From: a virus
Virus record (IMG/VR): IMGVR_UViG_3300006925_000008
Span: 33,369 to 97,368 of that record
Length of the DNA stretch: 64,000 bases
Strand: one strand, 5' to 3'
Notes under the pieces: generated by a model
Told to the model about the DNA's origin: nothing
Database searches by the model: none
What the model saw: only the letters and a program-made list of their open reading frames with translations
Program-made: the position numbers and the translations under genes
In this document: positions 6,491 to 61,794 of the stretch, piece by piece
How positions within the stretch are numbered: position 1 is the first letter of the stretch
How the letters are laid out: each line of letters opens with the position of its first letter

Positions 6491-9034
6491 CTAAATCACT
6501 CCGTATTTTTCAAGGAAATAAGCGTTTACCTCGACCATTTCAGTATCTGATAACGCTTTATCATAAATCATCCATTCGGCTATTCTAAAGTCCGTCACTG
6601 CACCAAAATTAGAGGTTGTAGCAAGACCTGTTGCGGGGTCAACCGCACTTGCATTGCCCAATAAACTGAATATCTGATCGTGAAAGTCAACAGCCGTCGC
6701 AATCGAACCATCACTAATTTGGTTATCCAACTTGACCCCGTGCGTCCATTCCTCGACTTTACTCGTGACTCCCGTTCCACTAATCCGAATACAAAGCAAT
6801 TGTGTTTGATTGGCGGAGGGAATCGGGAGAGCGGGCGGTATAACTCCGGCTGACGCATTTGAAAAGGTTCTGCTATTTGTCGGGAGGAGGTAATCAAGTG
6901 AAGTGAGGTTGGTCCCTCCCTGAACCGAAAAGACACGCAGGTTTGATGTAATGTCGTAAACAGGGTTTATCATCATAAAAATAGTGTATGAATCAGTTGG
7001 CGATGTCGTGAGTTTATTTGTTGTCGATGACCCGCCATTTACTAAGACCTTACCGTTTACGGAGGAACCTTGGACTTTGTAACAGGGTTGCCCATTGAAT
7101 AGGGTGTTACTAGACTCCCACGCCCAATCCCCGCCGTTTGTATCTCCAAAGAAGTCCATCTTGTTGCCTGAAAGGTCTTTGAAATGCCTGCAAAAAACAC
7201 CACTGTAATACAGTTTATGAGCGGCATTATGCCAAAAAATGAGATTCTTTTTTGGGGGGTCCTGACCCGCCGGGTTGTAATTTGTATCCCCCGCAGACAT
7301 CCACATCTGTGGCTGATTAAGGTGCGAGGGTATTACCTTGGGTGATCGACTTTGAATTGAAACCCAAAAAGCCTCGTTCTTATTCCCTGAAACATCCTTA
7401 AAACGCTGGCCCTGTGAAAACACAGCACGAGTATATGCGTCCTTTGGTCGTGTTTTTTGGCCCGGATTTGTGACCAAATCTGTCTTTTTCTCTCCGTCAT
7501 CGAAAACCAAATCTCCATTGCCTAGACAAATCCAAACAGGGGTGTCGTCATCATGGTGATACTTGAAACTAGAAAATCCGGGTCGGTTTTCAACGCCGCC
7601 GATACCGCTTGAACCGTTGGCGGTTTCATCACTAGCGGCATGGGTGGACACGCATAAAACCACATTTTGGGTGAAATCAATACCAATCACCCTGACTCTT
7701 TCAGTTGGGTTCGTCATTGGGTCTAAATCAGTGTCAACCCCCTTCGCTAATACTCTCTCAACCAAATACAATTCACTGCTTGGGGTGGTCGTGGGGTCCA
7801 TGTATGGCATCCGTAGTGAACCCGTTGAACCTTTGTGATATTTAGTGTCAGGGTGAGTCCCTGAATGATTTATGATCAAGTTTAGGTTTGATTGAGGGAT
7901 TCCCTGTAAAGACCCTGCGGGGTCAAGGTAATCAAATACATTAGAATTGCTTTGACCGCCTGTTACAGTAGTCTCGGAGGAGAATAACAGGTTCCCTCCA
8001 ACATACCATGACTGTTCTCTTATTTCTTCTAAAGGAATACCAGTGAATAAGGATGCCAACTTCTCCGTTGCTGAATATATGTCTTCTGTGGTTGAAAGGT
8101 TACGAGGCAATTCCCTCACTCTAAAGGTTCCGAGGCCTGACGGGTTCCCAGCGACACCAATTGTTTTGAAATCGTAACCAATCATTACTAGAGGTATGTC
8201 AAACATACCATCATCGGTTCCGGGTCCATCCCTCCCTTGAGTTGCACTCCCTGACTTTGAATTACTGAAAAACTTGACATCAGGAATCTCTATGTCATCA
8301 TTGAAATCCCAAAAGCCAATGCATTCGTCAATGTTTGTCAAAGGTTCAAGTTTAGGGGCCACTGTTCCACGGCTGATACGAATGCTTTCGATCAGGCCAC
8401 GATATTCTCCTCCTTTGCCTCCAATGAAAAGGTCTGAAGACTTTTGGTCCATTAGTCGTGAGTCCCCCCCAAATGACAATTCAGCGACTAAAGCAGTGTT
8501 CATGAATAGTTTGAGGCCATGGGTATTAAACTGTGCTGTAACCATCATAAGTGGTTGCTTATTGAATGTGTAGTCCTGTGGCTTAAGCCGGTTGTCTCCA
8601 TATTTATGCATGGTTGATGGGAGGAATGTGTCAATTGAAAAACTGGTTTCGACTGTAAAAGAATTGCCACCTGATATAATTGTGAATGAGATAGGCCCCG
8701 CTTGAGTCCCATTTACAGGGTCATATACTCCAAACGGGTTGCCAACTTGTAGTGAAAACTGGCCGTCTTTGGATACCACCATCCCGCCCATGTCAGGAAC
8801 CACATAAGCGTCTATGGTGAAAGCCCCTCTAAGTGTGTTCAATGGATTTGTTTCATTCGGGATATGTTCACGCCCCGTTCTTGTCGAATTACTATATTCG
8901 GTGGTGGGCGAAAACGAATAAGCAGGTCTATTCTTCTTTACACCCCGTTCTTTGAATGCCCCAGTTGGGACGACTAAGCCATCAGTAGTGCCATTCATAC
9001 GAATAGACTTGCCATAAAAACGATGAACACCCAT
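6491..9034 (-). CDS. Tail protein with LamG/concanavalin-like domains
   Basis: 847 aa; FTIDAYV...LKLFMN...LFIGG...YRGLIESIRIS and C-terminal IAEWMIYDKALSDTEMVEVNAYFLEKYG patterns; tail-module position. Confidence 0.65.
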   Translation of the reverse strand: MGVHRFYGKSIRMNGTTDGLVVPTGAFKERGVKKNRPAYSFSPTTEYSNSTRTGREHIPNETNPLNTLRGAFTIDAYVVPDMGGMVVSKDGQFSLQVGNPFGVYDPVNGTQAGPISFTIISGGNSFTVETSFSIDTFLPSTMHKYGDNRLKPQDYTFNKQPLMMVTAQFNTHGLKLFMNTALVAELSFGGDSRLMDQKSSDLFIGGKGGEYRGLIESIRISRGTVAPKLEPLTNIDECIGFWDFNDDIEIPDVKFFSNSKSGSATQGRDGPGTDDGMFDIPLVMIGYDFKTIGVAGNPSGLGTFRVRELPRNLSTTEDIYSATEKLASLFTGIPLEEIREQSWYVGGNLLFSSETTVTGGQSNSNVFDYLDPAGSLQGIPQSNLNLIINHSGTHPDTKYHKGSTGSLRMPYMDPTTTPSSELYLVERVLAKGVDTDLDPMTNPTERVRVIGIDFTQNVVLCVSTHAASDETANGSSGIGGVENRPGFSSFKYHHDDDTPVWICLGNGDLVFDDGEKKTDLVTNPGQKTRPKDAYTRAVFSQGQRFKDVSGNKNEAFWVSIQSRSPKVIPSHLNQPQMWMSAGDTNYNPAGQDPPKKNLIFWHNAAHKLYYSGVFCRHFKDLSGNKMDFFGDTNGGDWAWESSNTLFNGQPCYKVQGSSVNGKVLVNGGSSTTNKLTTSPTDSYTIFMMINPVYDITSNLRVFSVQGGTNLTSLDYLLPTNSRTFSNASAGVIPPALPIPSANQTQLLCIRISGTGVTSKVEEWTHGVKLDNQISDGSIATAVDFHDQIFSLLGNASAVDPATGLATTSNFGAVTDFRIAEWMIYDKALSDTEMVEVNAYFLEKYGVI

Positions 9035-42529: not shown

Positions 42530-42721
42530 TCACCAAATTGAAATCTCCCACGCTGTATCAAAAGCCTTCTTCAAATCCGCTGGATGTTTACCTTCTTTTT
42601 TGAGGTCTTTGTAGCAAGCACACATAGGTTCTTTCTGTGAACATTTCATATTGCCCTTCTTCATGCAAGCGCATGGTTTACTCTTTGTTGCACCACAGCA
42701 ACAACCATCATTATCAGCCAT
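42530..42721 (-). CDS. Metallothionein-like Cys-rich peptide with C-terminal AFDTAW motif
   Basis: CCC, CAC, C, CAC in the first 37 aa. Confidence 0.6.
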   Translation of the reverse strand: MADNDGCCCGATKSKPCACMKKGNMKCSQKEPMCACYKDLKKEGKHPADLKKAFDTAWEISIW

Positions 42722-43427
42722 CTTCTAAAACCCCCGCTTCAGCCAAAGACTGTCTCAATTCACGCCATTCGGCGGGAGACTTTTCAGCAAAGTGAGCCTG
42801 TATTACTGTGAGGACAGACATCGAATGACCCTGTTCAATGGTTTCAGCCTTGTCCATCCACTTAGCCAAATCAGTCAGGGTCTCCCTAACTTCTTTATGC
42901 ATTTTGATTGCGATTTGTAAATCAGCCGCTGTCGCCTGTTCCTCTTCATCCCTCATTGCATTCTCAACATGATCGAGATGTAAAGACAAAAGCCGGTCCA
43001 TGCGGTTCATGTTATTTTCAACACGCTTCAATGAATCTGTTACTGATGACATTGCCGATGGTAACACCTCAATCTCGACTTGTTTTTGAACAAGAGGTTT
43101 CGTGTGCTTCTCCATGTGGTCAAAAAGAGTCCCCTCTTCAATACCTAATTCAACTGCAAAGTCTTCGACAGTCGCTCGGCCTTCAAGAATTGCTTCTTCT
43201 ATTACCGCCCTGTCACCGTTGGTGCATACTGGGCAATCTGAATTACTGTTGTTATGATACTCGCCGGAATGCCGCCTCATGTGGCGGTGTGCGGTTCCTT
43301 CAGCCCAGCCTTGGTCTTTATCGAGAGTCTTGACATCCAACATTCCGACTCGGATTTGATGTTCAAAGTCATCCCTTTCAGGGTGCTGACAAAAGTGGCA
43401 ATTCGCCCTTGTCTTACGCCCCGCCAT
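42714..43427 (-). CDS. Tandem zinc-binding HTH protein with coiled coil (terminase small subunit candidate)
   Basis: Duplicated CxxC...HxxxH/HTH units followed by a helical oligomerisation-like region. Confidence 0.5.
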   Translation of the reverse strand: MAGRKTRANCHFCQHPERDDFEHQIRVGMLDVKTLDKDQGWAEGTAHRHMRRHSGEYHNNSNSDCPVCTNGDRAVIEEAILEGRATVEDFAVELGIEEGTLFDHMEKHTKPLVQKQVEIEVLPSAMSSVTDSLKRVENNMNRMDRLLSLHLDHVENAMRDEEEQATAADLQIAIKMHKEVRETLTDLAKWMDKAETIEQGHSMSVLTVIQAHFAEKSPAEWRELRQSLAEAGVLEDG

Positions 43428-43448: not shown

Positions 43449-43628
43449 TCAATTAGCCTTTTCATTCAACTTACCATGAATTGTGCAATATCCTTCGTAT
43501 TTAGGAGATGCCAAACGCTTACACGGGTTCCCCGTTTTTGTCAATGCCTTACACTTCATTGAAGTGTCTTCCTTCGGCTTCTCTTGAACGGGCGGAGCCT
43601 CGATTATTGCTTCTCGATACTCCATCAT
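43449..43628 (-). CDS. Small C-x9-C-x10-C-x2-H zinc-finger protein
   Basis: CKALTKTGNPCKR...YCTIH. Confidence 0.6.
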   Translation of the reverse strand: MMEYREAIIEAPPVQEKPKEDTSMKCKALTKTGNPCKRLASPKYEGYCTIHGKLNEKAN

Positions 43629-43647
43629 TGGCGACAGGCGATACCTG

Positions 43648-43920
43648 TCAATACCGAAAGGATGCGAATTGTTTGATCGCAACCGACATGGTGAAAATAA
43701 GGCCAAAGAATCCAAGCATCATTTGGGTGGCTGTCAAGTCCTGACCCCGCCAAATCAATGTCACCAAAGAGAATAACAGGAACGCAATTATGAATATCAT
43801 TGTCGCACTTTCGACTAGCATTTTATTTGGAGATACGAAAGCGTCAAGCGTATTTGCCCAACTCACCGTATTCATGTGTTCGTCCTGTAACTGCGTTTCC
43901 GACTTTTTTCCTTCATTCAT
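43648..43920 (-). CDS. Small two-TM membrane protein
   Basis: Two hydrophobic segments (MIFIIAFLLFSLVTLIW; MMLGFFGLIFTMSVAI). Confidence 0.7.
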   Translation of the reverse strand: MNEGKKSETQLQDEHMNTVSWANTLDAFVSPNKMLVESATMIFIIAFLLFSLVTLIWRGQDLTATQMMLGFFGLIFTMSVAIKQFASFRY

Positions 43921-43930
43921 TTAATTCACC

Positions 43931-44572
43931 TCAAAGGCCCATAGGGGACATTACCGCCCCTGCTTTTGCCACATTGCCCATGGCATTACCCATGCCGCCT
44001 TGTTGTTGCATTTGGTTGCCTAGCATACCGCCGAGTAAACTGCCAAAGAATCCGGGTTGTTGTTGGTTCATAGCCATTGGATTATGAGCCATTAGGAACA
44101 TCTGTTGTTGTTGCATTCTTTGCTGGATTCCCATGTTGATGTTGTTTTGCACTTGTTGTAGTGTGAGTTGTAAGTTTTCAGGGGACATTGTTGCCAAGGT
44201 TGCTGGCATTGAAGAAGTATCGATAACAAAGTTTTCTTCAGCGTCTTGCTTAAACTTCACAGACTGGAAAAACTCTTTGACGGCCAAAGTAACAACTCCA
44301 CCCATCAACTCGATCAGCATTGCGAAGTTTTGCGAGACAATGAAATCAGACACGGGGTCATTGAAATCAAGAAGGCGAGCGGTTGCAGTAATGGGGTCAT
44401 TAGCCATTTGTTGCATCATTGGATTTTGAGCCTGTTGACCCATCATCATAGCACCCATACCTCCTTGATTCATTCCGTTCATTCCGTTCATTCCTCCTGC
44501 ATTGGGTTGCCCAAAAGAGGGGGTCCCAAATTGAGAGGTTGGTGTTGCACTATCTTTTGAAAACCAGCCCAT
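43931..44572 (-). CDS. Gln/Met/Gly-rich protein
   Basis: Low-complexity ends; MGWF amphipathic N-terminus. Confidence 0.65.
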   Translation of the reverse strand: MGWFSKDSATPTSQFGTPSFGQPNAGGMNGMNGMNQGGMGAMMMGQQAQNPMMQQMANDPITATARLLDFNDPVSDFIVSQNFAMLIELMGGVVTLAVKEFFQSVKFKQDAEENFVIDTSSMPATLATMSPENLQLTLQQVQNNINMGIQQRMQQQQMFLMAHNPMAMNQQQPGFFGSLLGGMLGNQMQQQGGMGNAMGNVAKAGAVMSPMGL

Positions 44573-44576
44573 TGTT

Positions 44577-45533
44577 TCATTCTCCTGTTATCGGTTGTAG
44601 CGTTGCCGCCTGTGGTGATGGCACAGCAACCTGATTCATCATACTTGCGCTACCTGCTACTCCGAGATATTGATTTTGCATTTGCTGGCTTTCTAACTGC
44701 AATGCACGAAGGTCGAATGTGACCATGACTATATCCGCCACGCCACTTATTGGATTTGGATGCTGGACCATGGTTATGCCTTTGCTATGTGCGGCATCAC
44801 GGTGAATCATTTCAAAAAAAGGCTCATACTTCTGAAGAGACTCCAATGTTGATCGGTTTTGTTTTTTACCTTGCATACCCTTCATCATTGCCCCAACTCC
44901 GGGTATTTTTTGAAATCTAGTCCCTTTGCTGACCTTTTTCCCAAAACCTTCGCTTTCTAATTCATGTTCCTGCGTGAGAGAGGTGAGGGTGTGCTTAATG
45001 TGAAGGTGAGCGGGACAAAGCGTGCTATTCATTTCATCTCCGTGGTCGCCGTGGGTTCTAGCATGTGGCTTCTTTGCCTGTCCAGTGTCCTCGTCAAACC
45101 AATAAATATCCGCCAAAGATAAGCCCACTCGCTCATCAACAATGTGTGCATAGGCGTTATCCCCTTCTAGGAACCTTCTGACATCAACCCCACAACACGC
45201 ACACTCATATGCGGCATTGTAACGATATATTTTGAAAAGTCCAAGATTGTAATTAGGCGGGCGTAACGCTTTACGAAGCATTTTGATATTCTTTTTACGA
45301 GCCTTTTTGGGGTTTTTAGGATTCTGTTTTAATTGAATCTCAACAGTTGGGATTAGCATCTCTTGTTTGTCATCAACTCCGCCGGATGAGCCGGAAGAGG
45401 CCATTTCAGCCCTTTGCTGTGCCTTGATTAAATCAAAACTGATACCGCTTTGGGCCGACAAAACACGCAACTGTTCGTCATTCAATGAAGTAAGCGAGGG
45501 GGTTCCTCCCCCCATAAACGGCATCCACGCCAT
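44577..45533 (-). CDS. Hypothetical protein with CxxC...CxxH zinc site
   Basis: ECACCG...LCPAH. Confidence 0.6.
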   Translation of the reverse strand: MAWMPFMGGGTPSLTSLNDEQLRVLSAQSGISFDLIKAQQRAEMASSGSSGGVDDKQEMLIPTVEIQLKQNPKNPKKARKKNIKMLRKALRPPNYNLGLFKIYRYNAAYECACCGVDVRRFLEGDNAYAHIVDERVGLSLADIYWFDEDTGQAKKPHARTHGDHGDEMNSTLCPAHLHIKHTLTSLTQEHELESEGFGKKVSKGTRFQKIPGVGAMMKGMQGKKQNRSTLESLQKYEPFFEMIHRDAAHSKGITMVQHPNPISGVADIVMVTFDLRALQLESQQMQNQYLGVAGSASMMNQVAVPSPQAATLQPITGE

Positions 45534-45574
45534 ATACCTGCCAGTCCTGACAGGCTGATAAGGGTGGCGGTAAT

Positions 45575-46306
45575 TTACATCCCTTCTATCAATTTAACCA
45601 AAACGCTTTCAACATTCAAACCATGTTGGGCTGAAATCGCTTCAACTTCAGCCCTTATCCCTGCTTTTCTTAGTCTCTTGAGTCCATCTCTAAAGGGATA
45701 TACAATAGGATGTTCTCGCTTCATGTTCATATCCCAAAGGGCTTTGGCGTTATGGTCATACCAAATGTCCATCTTGTTGATCAGAAGACAAAAAAGTTTA
45801 GGCTCATACTTGTTTGCTTTACGCTTCATCCGACGATTAAAGGTCGAAGGATACCGTTTTTTGAGCAAAGCATCCACTACATATTCAAAACCAGCGACGG
45901 CATCCATCCTGCATTGGAGATTTGTTAATACTCGATGATCAACCATGTAAATGACAACCTCAACCTTTCGACCTATCATGTCCTCAATCCAAAGGTTACG
46001 AAACTGGGCCTGACCGCCTATGTCATTGTTGACAACAGACTTCTTGTCTTTTTTCCATCGCAACAATTTTCTTTTTGCTTTTGGCATTCTGTATTTTTTT
46101 GTATCCGTTTCATAAGCGTGAGTCGTTCTAAACTCAAGAGGGATAGGGTCTATATCTCCGGGGACTGTCAAGTATTGGTCAAGAGTTGTTTTACCCGCCA
46201 TCGAAGGGCCATATATGCCAAAGCGGTAAGGTTTGAGTATTCGATATATCTGATGGGCGACTGTTATCGAACCTAGGATAAAATGTCCTGCGACAAGCGC
46301 ACTCAA
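45575..46306 (-). CDS. Small Ras-superfamily GTPase, Arf-like
   Basis: G1 GPSMAGKTT, G2 RTT, G3 DIGGQAQFRNLW, VVIYMVD, G4 NKMD, G5 ISA; hydrophobic N-terminal helix. Confidence 0.88.
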   Translation of the reverse strand: MSALVAGHFILGSITVAHQIYRILKPYRFGIYGPSMAGKTTLDQYLTVPGDIDPIPLEFRTTHAYETDTKKYRMPKAKRKLLRWKKDKKSVVNNDIGGQAQFRNLWIEDMIGRKVEVVIYMVDHRVLTNLQCRMDAVAGFEYVVDALLKKRYPSTFNRRMKRKANKYEPKLFCLLINKMDIWYDHNAKALWDMNMKREHPIVYPFRDGLKRLRKAGIRAEVEAISAQHGLNVESVLVKLIEGM

Positions 46307-46319
46307 ATTGAGGTCCCCC

Positions 46320-46541
46320 TCATCGGTTGACTATGTAGTCCCAAACATCGGACGGAGTATATCCTAAAACATCCAAACCAAAAAGTAATGCGAAGGTGAG
46401 ACCAACCCCGGCAATCATCGCTATAATTGTTCTTACCCATCCTGCCATCCTCTCCATTTTTCGTTCATATGAGTTTTCAGCAAGAATCATAGACATCGCT
46501 TCCGCTTGTCTTTCCTGCTTGTTGGTGAACGGCCATACCAT
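46320..46541 (-). CDS. Small single-TM membrane protein
   Basis: IIAMIAGVGLTFALLFGL. Confidence 0.7.
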   Translation of the reverse strand: MVWPFTNKQERQAEAMSMILAENSYERKMERMAGWVRTIIAMIAGVGLTFALLFGLDVLGYTPSDVWDYIVNR

Positions 46542-46557
46542 GAATAGACCTCCTTAA

Positions 46558-47043
46558 TCAGTCATTTTCATTGTTTTCACTGGTTTCTTCATCAGTCGAT
46601 GAACCCTGCATCTGTTGCCATGGATAACCAAACACCTGCCCCTGTGACTGTTGCTGGTTGTTTTGATAGTAATTTTGTTTTTGGTTCCTGCGTTGCATTA
46701 AACGCATTTGGCTTCTTTGCCATTTGTCATAACGATGCTCTTGGGATAATTCCGCCCTGATCGCCAAAGAGTCTCGGATGCCACCCACATGAAACAAAAC
46801 CATTGCGGTGCATAAGAAACCGAATGCAATTAGTCCATATTGTAGTCCCATTTCACCGGGGGTCGCATTTGGTAAATACCACCCTAAATGAGAAACTGCA
46901 ACTGCGCTTCCTGTAAGCAATGCCTGCCATAGCAACATGGCTATCAGATTTACATCGATTCGTTGGTTGTCTTGCGCCCAAGGAGGAACCCCTCCGTTTG
47001 GCGAATGCGGTCCTTGTGGCCGAATTGGTCCATTTTGTTTCAT
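46558..47043 (-). CDS. Two-TM membrane protein with Gln-rich tail
   Basis: Two hydrophobic segments followed by a polar C-terminus. Confidence 0.7.
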   Translation of the reverse strand: MKQNGPIRPQGPHSPNGGVPPWAQDNQRIDVNLIAMLLWQALLTGSAVAVSHLGWYLPNATPGEMGLQYGLIAFGFLCTAMVLFHVGGIRDSLAIRAELSQEHRYDKWQRSQMRLMQRRNQKQNYYQNNQQQSQGQVFGYPWQQMQGSSTDEETSENNEND

Positions 47044-47257
47044 TTTCCTTCACCCGATTTGGTTTTTTCGTTCTTGAAATACTGTTCAAGAACAAAATTG
47101 ATGAACGACGACTTAGATTCCCTGCCTCTTTCAGACTCCATTTTTACATACAAATGGTCCTGCATTACAACTGAAACATGTCGGCTCATCGTATAATGCC
47201 AACCCTGACAGCCTTATGAGCATTATGATGAAGTAGTGAGACCGTTTGGGGTATATC

Positions 47258-47755
47258 ATGCCGAACCTGATCGAAGCCGTAAATGCAATGAGGTCATACA
47301 ATAATACAATTGAAGCAACCTCTCTCGACACTTCAGCATTAGCGTCATGGATTGACAGAAACGCAAACACGAATGTGCAACGCCAACAACAATTCTCAAC
47401 AGATGCGGCGATAGGAGTCTTAAGTTACTACGGGCATCCTCTATTCACCAGTGCAAATCTAAACCAGTCTCAAATGGACTGGACGGCTTTAATGGCATCC
47501 GCAGAACAGATTCTTCAACAAGAAGTAACTTGGAGTAACCAACAGGTGTCAATAGCAAACTTGACTATGTTCGCTCGTTTGTTTGGTTCTGATGTTAGTT
47601 GGCTAAACACTTGGGCCAATGGACGAATGGCTCCGAATACAAGCATCGAGTTTATTGTAAACGAATTGATTTCCGATTTTAGAACCTGTCAAGGTCAAAG
47701 CGGTGCGGGTTCGATCAACCACCAGTCTCATACGCCGGTTTCACCAATACCCTGA
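47258..47755 (+). CDS. Hypothetical protein, opposite strand
   Basis: Only long ORF in the gap; ATG at 47258; converges on the GP88-like gene. Confidence 0.6.
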   Translation: MPNLIEAVNAMRSYNNTIEATSLDTSALASWIDRNANTNVQRQQQFSTDAAIGVLSYYGHPLFTSANLNQSQMDWTALMASAEQILQQEVTWSNQQVSIANLTMFARLFGSDVSWLNTWANGRMAPNTSIEFIVNELISDFRTCQGQSGAGSINHQSHTPVSPIP

Positions 47756-49020
47756 AGATTGAATTGCGAGAGGTCAACCCCATCCATTGGGACCTGAACC
47801 TGCTGTCTTTCAGCGAGTCTCATGTTTGTGTTTTGAACCGCTTGGTCGTGAGAAGCCTGTTCTAATGGGTTTCTGCTCATCATAGCGGCTTTAGTCGTAT
47901 GCCCTGAATAGTCAATATGTTTGATGCTTGGGTCCCAGCAGGCATTGCACCCGTGCGACTCGCACTTACCCATGTCGTCTTTTTGGCCTGCCGATGGACA
48001 CACCCACACGCTGTCAGGTGCTAGATGTGACGCATTCATTGTCGATACGCTGACTTGAGGGTGTTGAGACATGTATTCCTCGATTAGACCCTGCGCCAAT
48101 TGATTACCTTTGGGTGTGGACATACGCAATGCGAGGTTTTTAGGAATATCCGCATTAGCCACGCCGCCATTGGCATCCATCCAAGTCCCAACATGGTTGT
48201 ATTCACGAGTCGGCAACCAAAACTGCTTTTCAGGATGCGCTCGTGCTATGTCCATTAACATGGACAAATGTTCGGGGGACTGTAAATCTCCTGCGGAAAA
48301 CAGCCGGATGTGGTCTCCCGCTTGATGGTTTTCGATTTGATATGACAAAGCGGCGGCATAGAGCATAGGGTTGGCCATGCCTAGCATGTTCCTCCATTGA
48401 ATACGCTGGGGGTGTTCTTGATTTTGTCTGCTGTAATCAGCATAACAGCCATTGCACGCTGAACCCTCCACATTTCTCAATTTTCCTCCTACATTACAAG
48501 CCGCTGTTGGGAGGTCTTCAGCACCGCCCCACATTTTACCGGGGGATGAAAGCCCCCCGTATCCATCGTATGAGTTTGAATTGACTCCTTTTATCCCGCT
48601 TTTCTTAATCCATTCAAGTATTTGCCTCGGAGTCTGTGCGGGCATACCTGTTTGATTTTGATAAATGTCTTTCATGACATGACCGCCCTGACCGTTCCTA
48701 AATTGAACGCCTGCGCCTGTGATCGGATAAGTTGCTAGTCCCGCTCTTGATTCGTCTATTGCTTGTTGCCATGTCGGGTGTATTGGCAGTTTTGTTGCCT
48801 CAATCATCGAACCGGCTCCACCGGGACCCTCGTAGCCTCTCGACGCACGGAATACATCGAGACCTGTTCCCAACTGCGGCAATAACTCATTCACCTCTTT
48901 GATACTGCGGAGGAGGATGTCCTTCACTAGAGAGTCATGCATAGGACCTCCGCATGAATGACAAATCAGGTGATGGGTGTCATCATGGAGGATTGCATTT
49001 TCAGGGTTGCCTCGACTCAT
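47728..49020 (-). CDS. GP88-like Cys-rich (radical-SAM-related) protein with N-terminal extension
   Basis: C...CxxCYA, IRLFSAGDL, FWLPTRE, LRMS and CP...C...CxxCW; ATGA overlap at 49017-49020. Confidence 0.65.
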   Translation of the reverse strand: MSRGNPENAILHDDTHHLICHSCGGPMHDSLVKDILLRSIKEVNELLPQLGTGLDVFRASRGYEGPGGAGSMIEATKLPIHPTWQQAIDESRAGLATYPITGAGVQFRNGQGGHVMKDIYQNQTGMPAQTPRQILEWIKKSGIKGVNSNSYDGYGGLSSPGKMWGGAEDLPTAACNVGGKLRNVEGSACNGCYADYSRQNQEHPQRIQWRNMLGMANPMLYAAALSYQIENHQAGDHIRLFSAGDLQSPEHLSMLMDIARAHPEKQFWLPTREYNHVGTWMDANGGVANADIPKNLALRMSTPKGNQLAQGLIEEYMSQHPQVSVSTMNASHLAPDSVWVCPSAGQKDDMGKCESHGCNACWDPSIKHIDYSGHTTKAAMMSRNPLEQASHDQAVQNTNMRLAERQQVQVPMDGVDLSQFNLQGIGETGV

Positions 49021-51350
49021 GGTGTCCAACTCCCCCTTGAGTTTTTCCAACTGGCTATCTCATCGGCTCCCATATCAGACAACCATGGCATGTTCGCATA
49101 TGCAAACATTTCGGGAACCTTCTTTGCATCCGACTTTACATTGCCCTCCCACCTATCGGCGGTGGCAAACTCCCCACCCTCGGACTCATCAACAAACTTG
49201 GTGTTTTCAGGATGAGGCGTGTCATGCCATGTCACGGGTATGCCCCGCTTGGCCAATGTTTGAAACAATTGACCAATGATGTCTGAATCCTCACTACGCC
49301 ATCCAGTGTGCTGGCCTTCTTGACCTCGATAAGGAGGGTCCAAAGCAACTGCGAAGTTTTCCGGCATTCGCTTTTGGTTGATCAGGTCTTTTACACCCAT
49401 ATTCAGAATGTTTGAATTGCGAAGGGTTCTATGATAATCGCCAAAGTCTGTCTCATCCTCGGTGATTCCGTAAGGCATTGTTCCACCCGCATAATATGCT
49501 GGTTGCCTTAGACCACCTTTACCCATCCATTCAGGTTTAGCCGCATCTGATTTAGCCCATTCAGGTCTAACCTTGCCAAAGTTGCCCTTTGCATCCGAAG
49601 TCCATATGTCCTCATCATCTTCACTCAATCCAAAGCGGTCCCGGTTTATTTTCCCCGAATTGATGATTGACTCCACTGATGAACCAAAGCCTCGCCCCGC
49701 ACTTGCTCTTGGTCTAGGTCCGGGCATATTCATGTGGCCACCTTTATTGTAGCGGAATGATTGCGAATAGGCGTTCTTAGAGAGGAACCATGTGAGCCTC
49801 AATAACTCAATCTCTTCATCAGGAGTAAGTCCGGCTACTTTTCGTTTGTCAGTCAAACGATTGAAACGGTCTTGTTGCTTGTAATAGTTGATTCCATAGA
49901 AGACACCTTCTAGGTCAGGCATACCAAATTGGTCAATCTCGTCTTGTGTGACGGGTCCACCGACTGGCATTTCAGGCGAACCCTCCTTGCCTTTGTATGA
50001 TGAAAAGGTCGGTGTTTCGCCAACACGAGTCAAAACCATATCCTGCAAAGCCTTTGCATCAAAGATTTCAGGGCGGTATTTGACAGCATTATGCAGGCTT
50101 GCCATCTCACGGCTTAAATCCGAACCTATGTGTGAGGGGGGTTGTAAACCATATGTGATTCCGCCACCACCCATGAATGGTTCAACAAGAGTTGTCCCCT
50201 CCTCCATAAGAGGGGCATACGCTGATTGATATTGCCTCCTGTAAGGTTTTTTCAAATCAGCCATATTCTTCACGCCCATGATCGATGCTAAGGGTTTCAA
50301 TGGTGCAGGCCTGTCCCATTTGACAACAGACCACGCATCTTCAAATATCGCTGATGATTCATCTGAACGGATAATGTCTCCCGACAATGCCTGCTCATAC
50401 ACCCTGCGTCCTTGGGGGGTCAAATCGTCAGGGTTGAAGTAAAGCCCATAACGACCAGTAGCCAAACCTTGGTTAATGCCATGCTTGCCTTCTGTTGCTG
50501 ACATAGTTGGAGGGACAGGAACACCTGCTTTTCCTTCATGCTCAACATATCCACTAGCATAGCCCGCACTAGGAATCATCAAAAGAGGGTCCACTGAACC
50601 TGTGACCTGATAATCTCTAGCCTCACGCCATGGCCTGCCTTCGTCCTCTCGATATTCACGCCTGCCTTCTTTGTCTTGGGAGAATACACTGTAACCTAAC
50701 CGAGGCATTTCATACCCCTCTTCATTGAATAAAGCAATGTCTCCTTGATATGTGCGGCCCACATTGAAACCTAAATCGCCTAGGTTTTTTCGCCCCTGCA
50801 TTAAATCAAGCATCAACTGCTGATCAAGATTACCTTGAGTCCACAAATGCCGAGACCTAACGCCGCTAAATGGTTTTTTGAACCTATCTGAATGAGACCC
50901 CTGCATTGGTCTTCCTTCTGAATCTCTATGCATTGTCCCGTGAAATGCCTGCCTTTGCTGTCCTTCATCAACGGCAATACGAGGTTTCTGAAGTGGCATT
51001 GCATTGGCAACGGCTACGACTGACGGAGAGCCAGTGCCAAACTTGCGTTCAAGGCTCAACATTGCTGAAGACTTGTCATTGACGGGGTTGGGGGAATGAA
51101 ACTTTGATTGAGAGATGTTTCTGAACATCCTTGCGTCGGCTGGTTCGCCTAGAGGGTCTTTTGACTTGAATTGCTTAGGCGGTTGCATAAACCGTGTGTC
51201 ATCAATGTTTTTTTGGTCAGCCACTGGATACATTGTCAAGCCAGTTTGACTAACCACTCCTTGGCCCGGTCTGCCTCTTTTGTTACCCGGCCATTCTTTC
51301 AATATACTGATGCCCGCTGTGGCGGCTTGGGTATGGCTGTCGCCGGACAT
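49017..51350 (-). CDS. Fusion protein with C-terminal Dam-like N6-adenine DNA methyltransferase domain
   Basis: Motif I LVEPFMGGGG followed by GSD, motif IV ALDPPY; the domain begins right after the internal AIFEDAWSVVK motif. Confidence 0.75.
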   Translation of the reverse strand: MSGDSHTQAATAGISILKEWPGNKRGRPGQGVVSQTGLTMYPVADQKNIDDTRFMQPPKQFKSKDPLGEPADARMFRNISQSKFHSPNPVNDKSSAMLSLERKFGTGSPSVVAVANAMPLQKPRIAVDEGQQRQAFHGTMHRDSEGRPMQGSHSDRFKKPFSGVRSRHLWTQGNLDQQLMLDLMQGRKNLGDLGFNVGRTYQGDIALFNEEGYEMPRLGYSVFSQDKEGRREYREDEGRPWREARDYQVTGSVDPLLMIPSAGYASGYVEHEGKAGVPVPPTMSATEGKHGINQGLATGRYGLYFNPDDLTPQGRRVYEQALSGDIIRSDESSAIFEDAWSVVKWDRPAPLKPLASIMGVKNMADLKKPYRRQYQSAYAPLMEEGTTLVEPFMGGGGITYGLQPPSHIGSDLSREMASLHNAVKYRPEIFDAKALQDMVLTRVGETPTFSSYKGKEGSPEMPVGGPVTQDEIDQFGMPDLEGVFYGINYYKQQDRFNRLTDKRKVAGLTPDEEIELLRLTWFLSKNAYSQSFRYNKGGHMNMPGPRPRASAGRGFGSSVESIINSGKINRDRFGLSEDDEDIWTSDAKGNFGKVRPEWAKSDAAKPEWMGKGGLRQPAYYAGGTMPYGITEDETDFGDYHRTLRNSNILNMGVKDLINQKRMPENFAVALDPPYRGQEGQHTGWRSEDSDIIGQLFQTLAKRGIPVTWHDTPHPENTKFVDESEGGEFATADRWEGNVKSDAKKVPEMFAYANMPWLSDMGADEIASWKNSRGSWTP

Positions 51351-51499: not shown

Positions 51500-52309
51500 T
51501 CACCTTACATTGGACCCGTCGAAGCAACGCTTGCAGTCTCCGCAGGTTCCCTCAATACTTTGATCGTGCGCTTTTCGTATATTCAATGGACATAGTGCTT
51601 TGTATCTATCGCCCTTCTCGTTTAACAATTCTGAATAAAGCAATGCTGGGGGGGAGTAATTGTCGTAAAAAAACAAAGAAACACCATGGTCATCCATTAT
51701 TTGTTGCATGTCAGGGTATTCGCCTTTGTCGCACTGATATGAAAAGAATATACGGTCTTTCATAGGAATGTCTAATGAAAGCACCTTTTCCCTACGCTTT
51801 AGGGATTCTTTATCGAGACTAAAGTGTAAATGGAGATTCGGATAATTCTTTACAAGTTTTGCCATTTTTGGTATTCTTGTCACAATCCATATGACCACAT
51901 CGGGATGATTTTCACCTATGTGGTTCAATGCTTCAACAGATTCAGGGAATAGGTCGCCTCCGCCGTTCCACCGCAGGTAAGTAAGTGAACGCTTACGATA
52001 TTCTTTAATGACTTCTTCAGCGAACCAAATGGGGTCTTTGACACAGTTTTCGTAGCACCAAACCTGTTTTCTTAGAGAATTGGTCCACGCCGTCATCCCA
52101 TTGGCATAATAGCAGGTCTTGACGCACAATTTAGATGGATTGCATGTCCCCTGTATAGGAAAATTAAGCGACCATCCTGATACCTTGTTTGCGCTTAATA
52201 TGTCAGTTGGCCTCTTCAATTCAGGCATTTCGTCGTTTTGGTCAAGTATTTTGAGCCTTATGTCCTTTGTTTTCTTGATAACTCTCGTTACACGGGCTTG
52301 GTCGGCCAT
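51500..52309 (-). CDS. GP88-like Cys-rich (radical-SAM-related) protein
   Basis: NK...SLNFP..GTC...C...CYY, LRWNGGGDL, WIVTR, LHFSLD and CP...CGDCKRCF. Confidence 0.7.
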   Translation of the reverse strand: MADQARVTRVIKKTKDIRLKILDQNDEMPELKRPTDILSANKVSGWSLNFPIQGTCNPSKLCVKTCYYANGMTAWTNSLRKQVWCYENCVKDPIWFAEEVIKEYRKRSLTYLRWNGGGDLFPESVEALNHIGENHPDVVIWIVTRIPKMAKLVKNYPNLHLHFSLDKESLKRREKVLSLDIPMKDRIFFSYQCDKGEYPDMQQIMDDHGVSLFFYDNYSPPALLYSELLNEKGDRYKALCPLNIRKAHDQSIEGTCGDCKRCFDGSNVR

Positions 52310-58681: not shown

Positions 58682-59751
58682 CAGTCATCGCCCCCGTAAA
58701 TCAAGCGATGTAGTCTTTCTTTATCCTTTTTTACCTTTTCAGGTGATCGATAAAAGTCGGGGTTTTCTTCATAAAACTTACCCATGCTGTGAGATACTTC
58801 TCTTTGCATGTCATGATGGTCATCAAGGGAGTTACTGCTATACTCGGCAACTTTCTGTTTCCAGTCTGAATCCTCATTATGAGGGTCTTCATAAATAGAC
58901 GCTAAAGACTCCTGCATCAGTATCCGGCGCATAATGCCGCTTATGTCATCATCAACACTGCCACCTCTCCTTTGGTCGCCAACATAATGCTCTCCCCCTC
59001 TTTCTGCATATTTGTTGGTCCATTCGTGTTCTTCTTCAGGTTGAGTTGTATGACCTAATTCATGGTTAATGATGCTGATAATCCTGTCCATAATGGGAAT
59101 GTCCTCATTATCTCTTAGGTATGACTCTCTTTGAGAGTTATAAGCGTCTTGACTTCGCCTATGCCTCCTCTCGGCAATCTTGTTGTTTGCTCTTAAACGG
59201 TCTTGTTCTTTAGATTGCTCTCGCCAGTTATCGGAGTCATAATCAATACTAGGCATGTCCATCCAATGAGTATATCCCGGTGTTCTTGTCAAAGAGGGGG
59301 GACTTGGATTGTTTTTGCTATATTCCTCCTCCATGTCAAATCGAACATTTTGGGTGATGTTGGGAAGGCTGATCAACATTCGGCCATCACCAAAAAGTGG
59401 TTTGTTATAGTCATTTGATGTCTCACCTCGCCAATTAGTTTTCTGTTCGTAGCCTTCGTCACTATTGGCTTGACCGCTCGGAGTAAAACGACCATACTCA
59501 TCTAAGTAGCGTTCTCGATGTGTTTGATTCTCTTCACCGCCATGTGCGTCTTCACGGTCAGGTTTATCCCAATGAGGGACTTCATCCCAGCCACCATCCT
59601 TATCATACTTGTTTGGGTTTTCTTCGGGGGTATCCTTTAAGCGGTTATACAACCACATCCGCTTGTAAGCAATTTCTTGAGGGGTTTCATTACCCTCAAT
59701 AAAATCAAAATCAGCCTTAAGGAAAAGCCATACTTCATCGAATGCGGTCAA
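58681..59751 (-). CDS. Leader-tagged HExxH zinc metallopeptidase-like protein
   Basis: TTG start behind GGTGA gives MTAFDEVWLFLK; IINHELGH...ESLA. Confidence 0.65.
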   Translation of the reverse strand: MTAFDEVWLFLKADFDFIEGNETPQEIAYKRMWLYNRLKDTPEENPNKYDKDGGWDEVPHWDKPDREDAHGGEENQTHRERYLDEYGRFTPSGQANSDEGYEQKTNWRGETSNDYNKPLFGDGRMLISLPNITQNVRFDMEEEYSKNNPSPPSLTRTPGYTHWMDMPSIDYDSDNWREQSKEQDRLRANNKIAERRHRRSQDAYNSQRESYLRDNEDIPIMDRIISIINHELGHTTQPEEEHEWTNKYAERGGEHYVGDQRRGGSVDDDISGIMRRILMQESLASIYEDPHNEDSDWKQKVAEYSSNSLDDHHDMQREVSHSMGKFYEENPDFYRSPEKVKKDKERLHRLIYGGDD

Positions 59752-60622
59752 TGACTTCACCGCCTTTATTCTTGATCGCTCTTACTGCACGGCGCATTTT
59801 CATGCCACGAGGCTTATTTTTTATCCAATTAGCCAGTCGCACAGCATCTTTCAGGTCCTTTGACTTAACACCACAGTCGATGTCTCTAGCCTCGCACCAA
59901 TCCACGAATACTTCAGTCGCTAGGTTTGCACCTGAACCGGGAATGAATGGGCAACCACCTAAGCCGCCAATGCTAGTATCAAACTCGGTTATCCCTAAAT
60001 CAACAGCAATATCGACATTTTGATACAAATAAGGGCCATGATGCAGGTGTAATGCGATGTTTTCAGTAATTGCACTGGTAATGTCGTATGCTTTCTTGAT
60101 CATCACCGGAGTGGCAATACCATCGGTGTCGCATAGCACTACGCCGTTGCCGAATTGCATTCCTATTTCGACAGCATTCTTCAAGTCTTCATCGGGACAA
60201 TCGAATGCCATTGAGATATAGACACGCACTTTGCTAGGTTCTATACCCTCCAATGCCAATTTGTATTCTTCAACGATAGAATCTAAGGTCCTGCCATAGT
60301 TTGACATGTTGAATACTTCATTGGGTGAGTAAAATATGTTGAATAAGTCAGCACCTACTAACTTAGCACGGTCAACACCACGCTTATTCGGCACTAAAAC
60401 CGACATATTAGCATCTAAACCGGCAACTGCGGCATATACGCTGTCGCTTTCAGCCATATTTGGGACTAATTTGGGATGAACAAATGCACCGACTTCTATG
60501 TCAGTAAGTCCTGACTTAGCCAACGCCTCCACTAATTCCACCTTTTCATCAAATGAAATGCTATGAGGAAGTGCTTGAAGGCCATCTCTAGGCCCAACTT
60601 CAAAGATGGAGACTTTCTTCAT
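59735..60622 (-). CDS. Hydroxymethylglutaryl-CoA lyase (DRE-TIM metallolyase)
   Basis: IFEVGPRDGLQ, IEVGAFVHPK.VP, LVPNKRG, LCDTDG, LHLH, GGLGGCPF.PG..NLATE. Confidence 0.88.
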   Translation of the reverse strand: MKKVSIFEVGPRDGLQALPHSISFDEKVELVEALAKSGLTDIEVGAFVHPKLVPNMAESDSVYAAVAGLDANMSVLVPNKRGVDRAKLVGADLFNIFYSPNEVFNMSNYGRTLDSIVEEYKLALEGIEPSKVRVYISMAFDCPDEDLKNAVEIGMQFGNGVVLCDTDGIATPVMIKKAYDITSAITENIALHLHHGPYLYQNVDIAVDLGITEFDTSIGGLGGCPFIPGSGANLATEVFVDWCEARDIDCGVKSKDLKDAVRLANWIKNKPRGMKMRRAVRAIKNKGGEVIDRIR

Positions 60623-61794
60623 ACCCATCCACCTTCAGTATCACGGAAGAAGTCTTCTCCAAGCAATTGGGCAATGCGAGAGTCGGGGTTCTTTTCACTG
60701 AAATCCATCAGGCGTTTCAATGGGACAGCGTTTTCATGAAAGAACCCGTGGACACCCGACGAACCCATTGGGGTGACATATGTCTTCAGGTCGGAGATCG
60801 GATTGCGTTCTTTGCCTTCATACCTTAATTCCAGCGGATATGTATCATGTAATTCAGGGTTGGTCTTATCGCCCCTTCTCCTGTAAATCTGTTCAAACTT
60901 GTATGGATGTGGGCTTGGCGCACCCCACTTGGTCCCTTTCAACTGCCATTTACTTGGTTCCTCATAATAACTGCCGCCCATCACGGGGCGTTGATAAATC
61001 ATATCTCCCTCTTGGTTCTTCCTTCGGATTACATGGTCTGTGTTCCACTTCCCGCCATCTCTCCAAGGCTTTCTGTTAATTGCCATCCTCCGGCCATATC
61101 CGCCCTCGGTCATTTGCCGACCAAGTTTATTCCACATGCCATAGGCTTCAGGAGAATATGAGTCATCGCCTGCCCGACCATAGGTTTGAGCCATGGTCCC
61201 CAGCATATGAGAGCCAATTCCTTGGCCACCCATTCCGGGCAATACGCTCATCTGTGCTACATTGCCATCCAGCGTTGGTGCGCCGTGTCCGACAGTCATC
61301 CATTCTTTAGAATCGGTATCCGCCTCATGGCGTATTGCCGCTTCAAGGACTTCGGGGGCTAATGCCTGTTGCCACGGAGTCCATGCCACCGGCCTCCCGC
61401 TTCCATGTCTAGCAATACGGCGTTGCTCAAGGTGTTGAGGAAACTCGGCTAGACCTAATGGACTTGAATAGCGGTCATGTTTCATTTCACGAAGGGTTGA
61501 TTCAACAGTATCTCGTCCACTTCGACTGTCCTGATAGGGTTCGTCCTCCCATTCGGCATATACATCGGGCCATTGGTCGTATCTCCTATTGCGAAGTTTA
61601 CCTAAACGGTCAATGTTCTCCTCCAAAATTGGGATAACCTTGCCAACAGGCATTTTATACTCGTGCTGAAGCACGCCAGCATCTGAATAACCCATGCTCA
61701 TGTTGGGTCTGATGAGTTGTATCAGGCTTTCAGGGGTCTGTTGAAGAATCGGGTCAGCCTTAATGAGGTCCCATAACTGGTCGAAAGTTATCAT
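60619..61794 (-). CDS. Leader-tagged protein with GNAT acetyltransferase-like domain
   Basis: MITFDQLWDLIK; MSVLPGMGGQGIGSHML (motif A) and SPEAYGMWNKLG (motif B-like). Confidence 0.65.
   Translation of the reverse strand: MITFDQLWDLIKADPILQQTPESLIQLIRPNMSMGYSDAGVLQHEYKMPVGKVIPILEENIDRLGKLRNRRYDQWPDVYAEWEDEPYQDSRSGRDTVESTLREMKHDRYSSPLGLAEFPQHLEQRRIARHGSGRPVAWTPWQQALAPEVLEAAIRHEADTDSKEWMTVGHGAPTLDGNVAQMSVLPGMGGQGIGSHMLGTMAQTYGRAGDDSYSPEAYGMWNKLGRQMTEGGYGRRMAINRKPWRDGGKWNTDHVIRRKNQEGDMIYQRPVMGGSYYEEPSKWQLKGTKWGAPSPHPYKFEQIYRRRGDKTNPELHDTYPLELRYEGKERNPISDLKTYVTPMGSSGVHGFFHENAVPLKRLMDFSEKNPDSRIAQLLGEDFFRDTEGGWV

Follow-up and report, generated by a model that had tools for sequence, protein, structure and literature searches.

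The virus analysed here, a tailed virus of the magrovirus type of marine Poseidoniales (Marine Group II, archaea that abound in the ocean), carries a cassette of co-oriented genes in which a small GTPase is encoded together with integral membrane proteins, a Cys/His protein and a glycine-zipper protein, and this cassette is virus-specific, core and vertically inherited in magrovirus-type viruses. That the GTPase is real and Arf-like is supported, and judging from sequence we tentatively suggest that its switch may gate a membrane-acting complex, the most likely output of which would be a breach of the host membrane that releases the virions. Magroviruses have been reported to be the third most abundant virus group of the surface ocean (PMC5434244) and the egress machinery of head-tailed archaeal viruses has been called completely uncharacterised (PMC10791045), while a search of the literature turned up no description of the block, nor any paper joining magroviruses with a GTPase. 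The cassette is a concrete and testable candidate for egress, or for another virus-driven action on the archaeal membrane.

The virus and its cassette

The window, that is the whole stretch of 64,000 nucleotides that was analysed, stems from a record of 97,368 bp which is 92% complete. The virus carries TerL, portal, prohead protease and MCP as well as a thermosome subunit gene (515 bits), the thermosome being found in magrovirus groups A and D too (PMC5434244), and its sister genome is a 106-kb contig within a Poseidoniales single-cell genome with an 80% identical MCP. No archaeal-type replication genes were identified by Pfam in the virus. The nearest cultured MCPs are those of HCTV-1 and HVTV-1 at about 31% identity, and in the haloarchaeal tailed viruses with the nearest MCP neither the GTPase nor Zn318 has a match. 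The haloarchaeal framing of the initial annotation had to be given up, since the virus is marine, bears a thermosome and has its near relative in a Poseidoniales single-cell genome.

The cassette is a late-region block situated upstream of the terminase gene, with 4-41 nt between its genes as judged by ORF coordinates, and the six ORFs that had been annotated initially are all in the ORF list at the same coordinates on the - strand. In the order of transcription the block and its neighbours are:

47246..47755, + strand: opposite-strand gene, 169 aa, conserved, bounding the transcription unit of the cassette on its upstream side
47040..47189, - strand: s49, 49 aa, first gene of the unit
46558..47043, - strand: TM161, 161 aa, two-pass membrane protein (TM 33-51 and 71-89 by hydropathy)
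46320..46541, - strand: TM73, 73 aa, single-pass membrane protein (TM 38-56 by hydropathy)
45575..46306, - strand: Arf-like GTPase, 243 aa, TTG start
44577..45533, - strand: Zn318, 318 aa, Cys/His protein
43931..44572, - strand: QMG213, 213 aa, Gln/Met/Gly-rich glycine-zipper protein
43648..43920, - strand: TM90, 90 aa, two-pass membrane hairpin (38-56 and 64-82 by hydropathy)
42714..43427, - strand: p237, conserved and linked to the block, about 2.8 kb downstream from where the GTPase gene starts

The three small TM proteins and the Gln/Met/Gly-rich protein of the initial annotation are borne out, with 2, 1 and 2 TM segments by hydropathy (threshold: a Kyte-Doolittle 19-residue mean of 1.5), and positive-inside reasoning would place their tails in the cytoplasm. 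TM161, for which family searches gave no match, probably has an N-in/C-in topology and ends in a 70-aa C-terminal tail that passes from basic through Gln-rich to acidic, whereas the single segment of TM73 follows a 37-aa N-terminal part opening with a conserved MxWPF..QERQ motif. QMG213 has an N-terminal MGWFS motif, a Gln/Met/Gly low-complexity stretch, a central helical part and a C-terminal conserved glycine zipper, QPGFFGSLLGGMLGNQ (alignment A4), and is without match in family and PDB searches. The small s49 has the conserved N-terminus M(S/G)(R/K)HVSV(V/I) and the invariant residues H4, V5, S6, E18, R21, G22, K26 and S27 (alignment A3), and its pattern of a beta-strand and two helices looks like a putative ribbon-helix-helix. 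Pfam, PHROGs and a PDB profile search all returned no match for s49. The supposed zinc-site protein, Zn318, does have an invariant Cys/His set (C111, C173, H176, H178 and H181), from which zinc binding may be presumed. Its predicted model has a pLDDT of 70 and gave no fold match in the structure search, the PDB, Pfam, NCBIfam and Atlas searches were likewise without match, and its relatives fall in 775 clusters, none of which bears a name. Family searches gave no match for the product of the opposite-strand gene either. The protein p237 has a CxxC...CxxC pattern in its N-terminal part and a helical C-terminal part, with no family match above threshold and none in GenBank phage records, and the gene might be part of the cassette or else of the packaging genes that come next. 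GP88-family and methyltransferase proteins are encoded in the region near the cassette. The earlier remark that no holin or endolysin is recognisable holds among the proteins scanned, which are a part of those of the window.

The gene order was compared over 80 related loci with neighbours detected by BLAST. Zn318 is immediately downstream of the GTPase in 80/80 loci and p237 is found at a constant offset in 79/80, while QMG213 was detected in 53, TM73 in 50, TM161 in 48 and s49, in the same place, in 48 of the 80; the opposite-strand gene has a counterpart in the same place and on the opposite strand in 25 loci. Related viral contigs carry the block in collinear order, and a five-gene core is kept in two deeper clades (260 and 375 IMG/VR contigs). 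L061, from a clade at 43% identity, has the same architecture, with TM161, TM73 and QMG213 represented by positional equivalents at 5201-5758, 5764-6000 and 7622-8203, and so does L095 of the P0195 clade (4222-4719, 4725-4946 and 6410-7123), although its flanking genes differ and the block is there surrounded by apparent structural genes. The window's clade and L061 both have TM90, which was not observed in the equivalent place of the P0195 clade. Furthermore, the GTPase gene is found in all MCP-related contigs that extend to the expected position (17/17), and dN/dS across the cassette is 0.02-0.09 (s49 0.087, TM161 0.084, TM73 0.082, QMG213 0.066 and TM90 0.021), indicative of strong purifying selection. 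Since the gene order recurs in related loci and dN/dS is this low, the conservation is far beyond chance. A cluster that was not conserved, or a GTPase recently picked up from the host, had been named beforehand as grounds for rejecting the membrane remodelling module; the order is kept across related loci and deeper clades, and the GTPase profile finds no copy in 150 other Poseidoniales genomes.

The GTPase and its family

The complete G1-G5 set proposed initially can be read from the translation and from an alignment of 28 sequences (A1), and so can the Arf-type switch II, DxGGQxxxRxLW. G1 is GPSMAGKT (G33-PSMA-G38-K39-T40), switch I has R60-T61, G3/switch II is DIGGQAQFRNLW (D95-IG-G98-Q99 and W106), G4 is NKMD (N177-K178-M-D180) and G5 is SAQ (S225-A-Q227), so that GxxxxGK[ST], DxxG, NKxD and SAx follow one another in a G domain of about 170-240 aa as in the Ras superfamily (TRAFAC). 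The P-loop, D95, G98, W106 and NKxD are retained, across all clades, in 136-138 of the 138 distinct sequences, and the catalytic Gln, Q99, is present in most relatives and replaced by D or E in a minority. Two insertions set the family apart, one of about 30 aa in switch I with a conserved LTVPGDIDPIP..RT stretch, in which TVPGD..IP..RT is an invariant motif of the family's own, and a basic one of about 23 aa between G3 and G4.

The predicted model (pLDDT 84.3, pTM 0.82) is a six-stranded G domain, and the best 36 matches of a VIA structure search are all of the Arf family, with Z 16.0-17.1 and an rmsd of about 2.5 over about 160 residues. The top match is Arl6 (4v0l_A, Z 17.1, rmsd 2.5, 164 residues aligned), Arl1, Arl3, Arf6 and Arf1 are found at Z 16-17, Arl8 and Arl2 are Arf-family relatives as well, and Asgard GerdArfR1 (8oum_A) and LokiRagO follow at Z 16.0 and 15.8; no Ras or Rab chains are among the best 50 matches listed. 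The best PDB sequence match is likewise GerdArfR1 (8oun_A, E 2.6e-6), an Asgard ArfR (PDB 8OUN/8OUM; bioRxiv 10.1101/2024.02.28.582541). By sequence, the family appears as a very divergent, Arf-like one that stands apart. Pfam Arf (PF00025) reaches 21.3 bits, below the cut-off of 22.3, and aligns with residues 90-125 alone, it matches 11 of 28 family members at E <= 0.01 (best E 2e-4), and the GTPase profile reached no canonical Arf, Sar or Ras protein among 1.84 billion representatives (E <= 0.001).

A hydrophobic N-terminal helix spans residues 2-24 of the model, and G7 and Y21 in it are conserved across clades. With an Eisenberg hydrophobicity that averages about 0.5-0.6 over residues 1-21, and with a moment under 0.2, the helix is not classically amphipathic, and as the maximum Kyte-Doolittle 19-residue mean of the segment is 1.30, below 1.5, neither does it score as an autonomous TM segment. 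Arf proteins release an amphipathic N-terminal helix on GTP binding (the interswitch toggle), and the model here represents one predicted state.

Possible functions of the cassette

Membrane attachment, partners, timing and output of the cassette we infer as follows. The GTPase, predicted to be catalytically competent, would be docked on the cytoplasmic side of the host membrane through its hydrophobic N-terminal helix and/or through cytoplasmic parts of the 2-TM and 1-TM proteins, and its GTP/GDP switch would gate a complex of GTPase, TM proteins, Cys/His protein and glycine-zipper protein, in which Zn318 is a candidate regulator or effector. The output could be a controlled breach of the host membrane by which the tailed virions are released at the end of infection. 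The conserved G motifs, the Arf-like model, the TM neighbours, the conserved order and the purifying selection are consistent with this, as is a late-region position upstream of the terminase gene; the lysis genes of phage lambda occupy the equivalent place. However, no neighbour matches a holin or lysis family, nothing links the cassette directly to lysis, and the helix, with its low moment and without a TM score, makes Arf-type or SRbeta-type attachment a candidate only. Small TM proteins with charged tails are furthermore common and not diagnostic, and we know of no need for a nucleotide switch in tailed-virus lysis. The earlier idea of egress or remodelling is in our view plausible. To go further and regard the cassette as the egress machinery so far missing from the picture of head-tailed archaeal viruses, with a membrane-docked Arf-like switch timing and triggering rupture by holin-like and glycine-zipper partners, is doubtful, but if true it would amount to nucleotide-gated lysis without bacteriophage counterpart in a highly abundant virus group of the surface ocean.

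The Arf-like fold also suits a non-lytic remodelling of membranes, in which an Arf/ArvA-like switch buds vesicles or builds a membrane platform, intracellular or peripheral. The purpose might be replication, assembly, decoy vesicles or release without lysis; the TM proteins would be cargo or receptors, and the Cys/His protein would regulate the switch in the manner of a GAP. ArvA indeed vesiculates Haloferax with a Zn-ribbon partner (PMC10927574), and in the viral loci, too, a Cys/His protein gene invariably comes after that of the GTPase. OapB/ArvB was found in none of 61 genomes of the host order, with Haloferax volcanii and Methanosarcina acetivorans positive as controls, and the virus could therefore supply a function that the host lacks. 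We nevertheless consider remodelling rather unlikely, since no OapB/ArvB (PF09846) or DUF2072/ArvC Pfam match was found at E <= 0.1 in the cassette proteins scanned, Zn318 has no detectable fold relative, tailed virions are without membrane and the GTPase helix is not of the classical amphipathic kind.

The place of the block just upstream of packaging and head genes, and in the P0195 clade amid apparent structural genes, would agree equally well with a role off the membrane, in which the GTPase, depending on nucleotide, chaperones or checks the head, neck or DNA-packaging steps while Zn318 and p237 bind nucleic acid. The linkage of p237 in all but one locus points the same way, and so do winged-helix-like structural matches of the C-terminal part of Zn318, although these are weak and at noise level (Z about 4). 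Such a helper is unlikely, however, in that it explains neither why the GTPase is invariably paired with two integral membrane proteins nor the hydrophobic GTPase helix with its conserved G7 and Y21.

Exclusion systems of tailed phages typically employ small membrane proteins, and the cassette opens its own transcription unit behind an opposite-strand gene with a first gene that is small and possibly DNA-binding, as might be expected if the complex blocked a receptor, a transporter, cell division or the entry of a second virus. Exclusion genes are however usually variable accessory genes, and a core block of the late region under strong purifying selection makes host takeover or superinfection exclusion improbable. 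An entry device delivered by the virion, in which the TM and glycine-zipper proteins are ejected with the DNA as an envelope channel and the GTPase aids translocation, would fit the GP88-family and methyltransferase proteins encoded nearby, but is very improbable as the capsid interior would offer a soluble GTPase no GTP supply and as the N-terminal tag proposed for capsid-targeted cargo of this virus was not seen where the cassette proteins start.

Comparison with known systems

If the cassette acts in virion release, as we tentatively prefer, holin-type lysis cassettes are the obvious comparison, since they likewise encode, in the late region beside packaging genes, small proteins with one or two TM segments and charged tails in the cytoplasm. 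To our knowledge, no known holin system includes a GTPase, and the host has no murein. TM161, with its two TM segments and charged 70-aa tail, suits the generic description of holins as proteins with TM domains and a charged C-terminal tail (PMC10791045), but gave no holin match in family search and has no endolysin nearby. As holins share little sequence similarity, the lack of a family match decides nothing.

The fold also occurs in other viruses, since a BFVD search (best E 5.7e-9) found giant-virus (Nucleocytoviricota) Rab/Ran/Ras homologues and no tailed prokaryotic viruses among the matches listed, and tblastn with the GTPase gave no match in 50,697 GenBank phage records. The cassette GTPase differs from these giant-virus proteins, which derive from eukaryotic Rab/Ran/Ras genes that eukaryote-infecting viruses captured recently. 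SRbeta, on the other hand, likewise has an Arf-related G domain behind a hydrophobic N-terminal membrane anchor, and a distant relative (P0180) has been named 'SRP receptor subunit beta' by JGI. SRbeta (2fh5_B) matches the model at Z 15.5 with an rmsd of 3.0 over 167 residues, more than 1 Z unit under the Arf matches, and no SRalpha/SRX-like partner is recognisable. Identity with SRbeta was rejected, as Pfam SRPRB gave E 0.094 and 12.5 bits against a cut-off of 25 and the N-terminal segment is below the TM threshold.

The ArvA/OapA system of Euryarchaeota (ArvA-ArvB-ArvC) also combines an Arf-like GTPase, an N-terminal hydrophobic helix, a Cys/His (Zn) protein in the operon and, as may be the case for the viral cassette, action on the cell membrane, ArvA driving vesicle formation in Haloferax together with a Zn-ribbon protein for which a GAP role has been proposed. 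As described, its operon has no counterpart of the integral membrane proteins of the cassette, and the Pfam annotation of ArvA is PF01926 (PMC10927574), which matches only 1 of 28 viral family members, weakly. The haloarchaeal vesiculation system serves as an analogy only.

With the Arf family, the viral GTPase shares the G-domain fold, the switch II signature and a helix before the G domain. It differs in the insertions in switch I (about 30 aa) and between G3 and G4 (about 23 aa), in a much more hydrophobic N-terminal helix with low amphipathic moment and without Gly2, and in being confined to viral genomes, where it belongs to a fixed cassette. It would add to the Arf-like GTPases a virus-specific, deeply diverged branch that lies outside eukaryotes and Asgard archaea, and this branch would bear on the spread of membrane-acting small GTPases before and beside eukaryogenesis.

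The cassette and its GTPase

The six ORFs that the initial annotation had grouped into a membrane-protein cluster all lie on the minus strand, packed with gaps of 4-41 nt, and were recovered at the coordinates listed here together with the preceding gene s49 and the linked gene p237.

47040-47189, minus strand: s49, small conserved protein
46558-47043, minus strand: TM161, two-pass membrane protein
46320-46541, minus strand: TM73, single-pass membrane protein
45575-46306, minus strand: GTPase, 243 aa (from translation)
44577-45533, minus strand: Zn318, Cys/His protein of 318 aa
43931-44572, minus strand: QMG213, Gln/Met/Gly-rich protein
43648-43920, minus strand: TM90, two-pass membrane protein
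42714-43427, minus strand: p237, linked gene

The complete G1-G5 set and Arf-type switch II attributed to the GTPase are borne out by its translation and by an alignment of 28 relatives, in which the motif positions are invariant or nearly so: G1 is G33-PSMA-G38-K39-T40, switch I contains the conserved R60-T61, G3 and switch II read D95-IGGQAQFRNLW106, and G4 and G5 are N177-KMD180 and S225-AQ227. The P-loop, D95, G98, W106 and the NKxD motif are furthermore retained in 136-138 of 138 distinct sequences covering every clade found. The protein is conserved and probably active as a GTP switch. In a minority of the aligned relatives the catalytic Gln of DxxGQ (the Q99 column) is replaced by Asp or Glu (DIAGD, DLAGD, DIGGE), and GTP hydrolysis may be different or slow in those lineages.

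An AlphaFold model built on the alignment (pLDDT 84.3, pTM 0.82) shows an N-terminal helix at residues 2-24 and a G domain of six strands, with additional helices separating G3 from G4; the insert in switch I is poorly modelled. The top PDB match of this model in Foldseek is Arl2, and in VIA-align rows 1-36 are exclusively Arf-family chains, led by Arl6 (4v0l_A, Z 17.1, rmsd 2.5, 164 residues aligned) and followed by Arl1, Arl3, Arf6, Arl8 and Arf1; the Asgard protein GerdArfR1 (8oum_A) is found at Z 16.0, an Asgard Rag-like protein at Z 15.8 and SRbeta at Z 15.5. The N-terminal helix keeps G7 and Y21 across clades and appears, on approximate scales and reference helices, more hydrophobic than the Arf/Sar1 helix and of low amphipathic moment, while on similarly approximate hydropathy scales it scores below a stand-alone transmembrane segment.

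Conservation and neighbouring genes

The gene order is conserved in the window's clade, as the initial annotation had proposed to check, and a core of it persists well beyond. Relatives of the GTPase are encoded on 260 IMG/VR contigs according to its profile, and BLAST over 80 fetched loci places Zn318 directly downstream in all 80 and also detects p237 in 79. Nearly all of the 50 loci with a GTPase identity of at least 47% have the full order s49, TM161, TM73, GTPase, Zn318, QMG213, TM90, p237, p148, p436. In a clade at 43% identity the small neighbours have diverged beyond BLAST; its locus L061 nevertheless has the same architecture, with two-TM, one-TM, GTPase, Cys/His, Gln/Asn-rich and two-TM proteins followed by p252. 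A further clade, that of P0195 (GTPase of 223 aa, 375 further IMG/VR contigs), retains a core of five (two-TM, one-TM, GTPase, Cys/His, Gln/Met-rich) amid different flanking genes. Of the contigs retrieved through their capsid protein, 17 extend far enough upstream of the capsid gene (about 23 kb), and every one of them encodes the GTPase; the four tested contigs without a GTPase gene are fragments that break off within 13 kb of the capsid gene on that side. Compared with the closest relative, L005, every cassette gene, small ORFs included, has a dN/dS of 0.02-0.09.

The neighbours likewise agree with what had been described. Hydropathy gives two, one and two transmembrane segments for the proteins of 161, 73 and 90 aa, the putative zinc-site protein Zn318 has invariant C111, C173, H176, H178 and H181, and the 213-aa product is indeed rich in Gln, Met and Gly, its C-terminus forming in the alignment a conserved glycine zipper, QPGFFGSLLGGMLGNQ. 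QMG213 has no match in a PDB profile search. Zn318 has none in Pfam, NCBIfam, the PDB profile search or the Atlas, and in PHROGs only a family of unknown function at E 0.0015; no fold relative emerged either, the top hits being at E 0.97 in Foldseek and Z 4.3 in a VIA-wide search. Its relatives fall into 775 clusters; those listed are all without a name, and in contig size and in the source labels given, such as Tara, they match the GTPase relatives. The protein s49, for which Pfam, PHROGs and PDB profile searches gave no match, might at a guess be a ribbon-helix-helix protein by its residue pattern; no duplicated operator was found upstream of it, the 12-mers of 47185-47300 recurring in the genome only as chance-level single words.

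TM73 (start at 46527-46541) and QMG213 (start at 44558-44572) have in common an N-terminal M-x-W-(P)-F motif. Of 43 aligned TM73 sequences, 42 begin M(V/A)WPF..QERQ or MWPF..QERQ, and most of 49 QMG213 sequences begin MGWFS or MGLFG, with MVWPFS in one orthologue; the motif could be a docking signal common to both. Directly after the cassette an 88-aa protein (43449-43715, minus strand) resembles a DUF5763-type zinc finger (E 9.2e-6, 25.5 bits against a cut-off of 26.3), with a BLAST match in only 6 of the 80 loci.

Host and origin of the GTPase

The 97,368-bp IMG/VR record, of which the window is bases 33369-97368, is rated 92% complete, has a G+C content of about 46% and encodes a large terminase, a portal, a prohead protease and an HK97-type capsid protein. 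The window genes share one strand, with the single exception of a conserved plus-strand gene of 169 aa and no family (47246-47755), which overlaps the 3' end of a GP88-like gene and occupies the same place on the opposite strand in 25 of 80 related loci. The two GP88-family (PF17338) paralogues, scoring 67.5 and 73.1 bits, lie at 47728-49050 and 51500-52309 on the minus strand; between them is a 777-aa protein, part of which is DNA methyltransferase-like (phrog_56). An HMGL-like aldolase/lyase domain (PF00682, 73.6 bits) at 59735-60628 on the minus strand marks a possible auxiliary metabolic gene.

The 33 kb outside the window encode a thermosome-type group II chaperonin (PF00118, 515 bits; L002:2156-3799, plus strand, equal to G000:C1:2156-3799), which is characteristic of magrovirus groups A and D (PMC5434244), and the virus is therefore placed with the thermosome-bearing magrovirus groups. 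Among GenBank phage records, the Haloarcula viruses HCTV-1, HVTV-1 and HCTV-5 have the closest capsid proteins, with identities of about 31%. This agrees with the published magrovirus-halovirus relationship, and the similarity is probably the source of the haloarchaeal framing in the initial annotation. That framing is wrong, since a 106-kb contig of the single-cell genome Candidatus Poseidoniales AG-422-I20 holds a capsid protein 80% identical to that of the window, along with a GTPase at 56%. Furthermore, the sequencing runs with at least half of the sampled cassette words are all marine metagenome DNA; among the runs listed for the cassette, none is an RNA run. Given the thermosome gene, the capsid relationship, the marine runs and the single-cell contig, the host is almost certainly Marine Group II and not a haloarchaeon. 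A haloarchaeal origin of the virus was rejected on the chaperonin, the low capsid identity, the single-cell contig and the finding that the GTPase has no match in GenBank phage records, haloarchaeal relatives included; Zn318 and p237 have none there either.

By its sequence the GTPase family appears isolated. The top match in a PDB profile search is GerdArfR1 (8oun_A, E 2.6e-6), from a preprint on Asgard Arf GTPases (bioRxiv 10.1101/2024.02.28.582541), followed by Arl8, Arl6 and Rab33 at E of at least 0.016. The Pfam Arf score, 21.3 bits over only 36 aligned residues, is below the cut-off of 22.3, and the matches of family members to the Arf, Roc, Ras and Rag models are weak and inconsistent, although the farthest full-length relatives, P0168 and P0180, exceed the Arf cut-off. 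When 1.84 billion representatives were searched with the profile, no more than 83 proteins passed E <= 0.001, almost all belonging to the family itself, and no canonical Arf, Sar or Ras was reached; one match, P0120 (2180 aa), was discarded as a spurious repeat protein, and the longer proteins included no fused forms, which is weak evidence. In the Atlas the closest clusters are viral (Uroviricota) G-domain clusters and then bacterial Arf-like proteins, and the BFVD matches listed all come from giant viruses that infect eukaryotes, most being Rab, Ran or Ras homologues.

Recent capture from the host is rejected for the genomes searched: its profile had no match in a sample of 150 other genomes of the host's order, so the GTPase is not nested among recent host genes, a case the initial annotation had raised, and the sole Arf-like match in the Poseidoniales single-cell genome is the viral GTPase. 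GTPase and capsid identities to the window drop together (92%/96% in L005, 58%/86% in L013, 52%/78% in L038), as expected for vertical descent with the GTPase changing faster. The family is old and virus-specific. The same GTPase, at 41-54% identity, occurs on 8-16 kb contigs of Parvibaculum (L084, L087) and Promethearchaeati (L086) MAGs, most likely mis-binned viral contigs.

Possible function and known systems

The GTPase gene has a fixed place beside genes for integral membrane proteins, in a transcription unit of the late region that starts with s49, after the opposite-strand gene. By positive-inside reasoning, the long tails of TM161 and the N-terminal part of TM73 would be cytoplasmic and could contact GTPase, Zn318 and QMG213. 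A membrane-docked GTPase switch might then, late in infection, gate a complex that acts on the membrane, with virion release as its most likely purpose, a model we put forward tentatively and at somewhat less than even chances; for egress taken alone the chances are lower still. The release model fits the position beside packaging genes, the holin-like appearance of TM161, the glycine zipper at the end of QMG213 and the lack of any known egress system in tailed archaeal viruses (PMC10791045). Alternatively, the cassette may serve ArvA-like vesiculation or membrane platforms, may help in assembly or packaging, may act in exclusion or takeover at the membrane, or may be an entry device delivered by the virion.

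The cassette is not an Arv system, the vesiculating GTPase system of Euryarchaeota (PMC10927574): the scanned cassette proteins have no Pfam match to OapB or DUF2072, and a search of 61 host-order genomes gave no OapB, with the Haloferax and Methanosarcina controls detected. Two magrovirus papers, PMC5434244 among them, do not mention the GTPase cassette, nor did the literature searched contain a co-mention of 'magrovirus' with 'GTPase' or 'small GTPase'; the closest published case concerns Arf GTPases encoded in a putative mobile region of an Asgard genome (PMC11529989). Compared with the Arf family itself, the viral GTPase is predicted to fold, and would work, like a member, but it falls below the curated Pfam threshold and has its own inserts and its own N-terminus, and for these reasons we file it as an Arf-like virus-specific family and not as a member of Arf proper.
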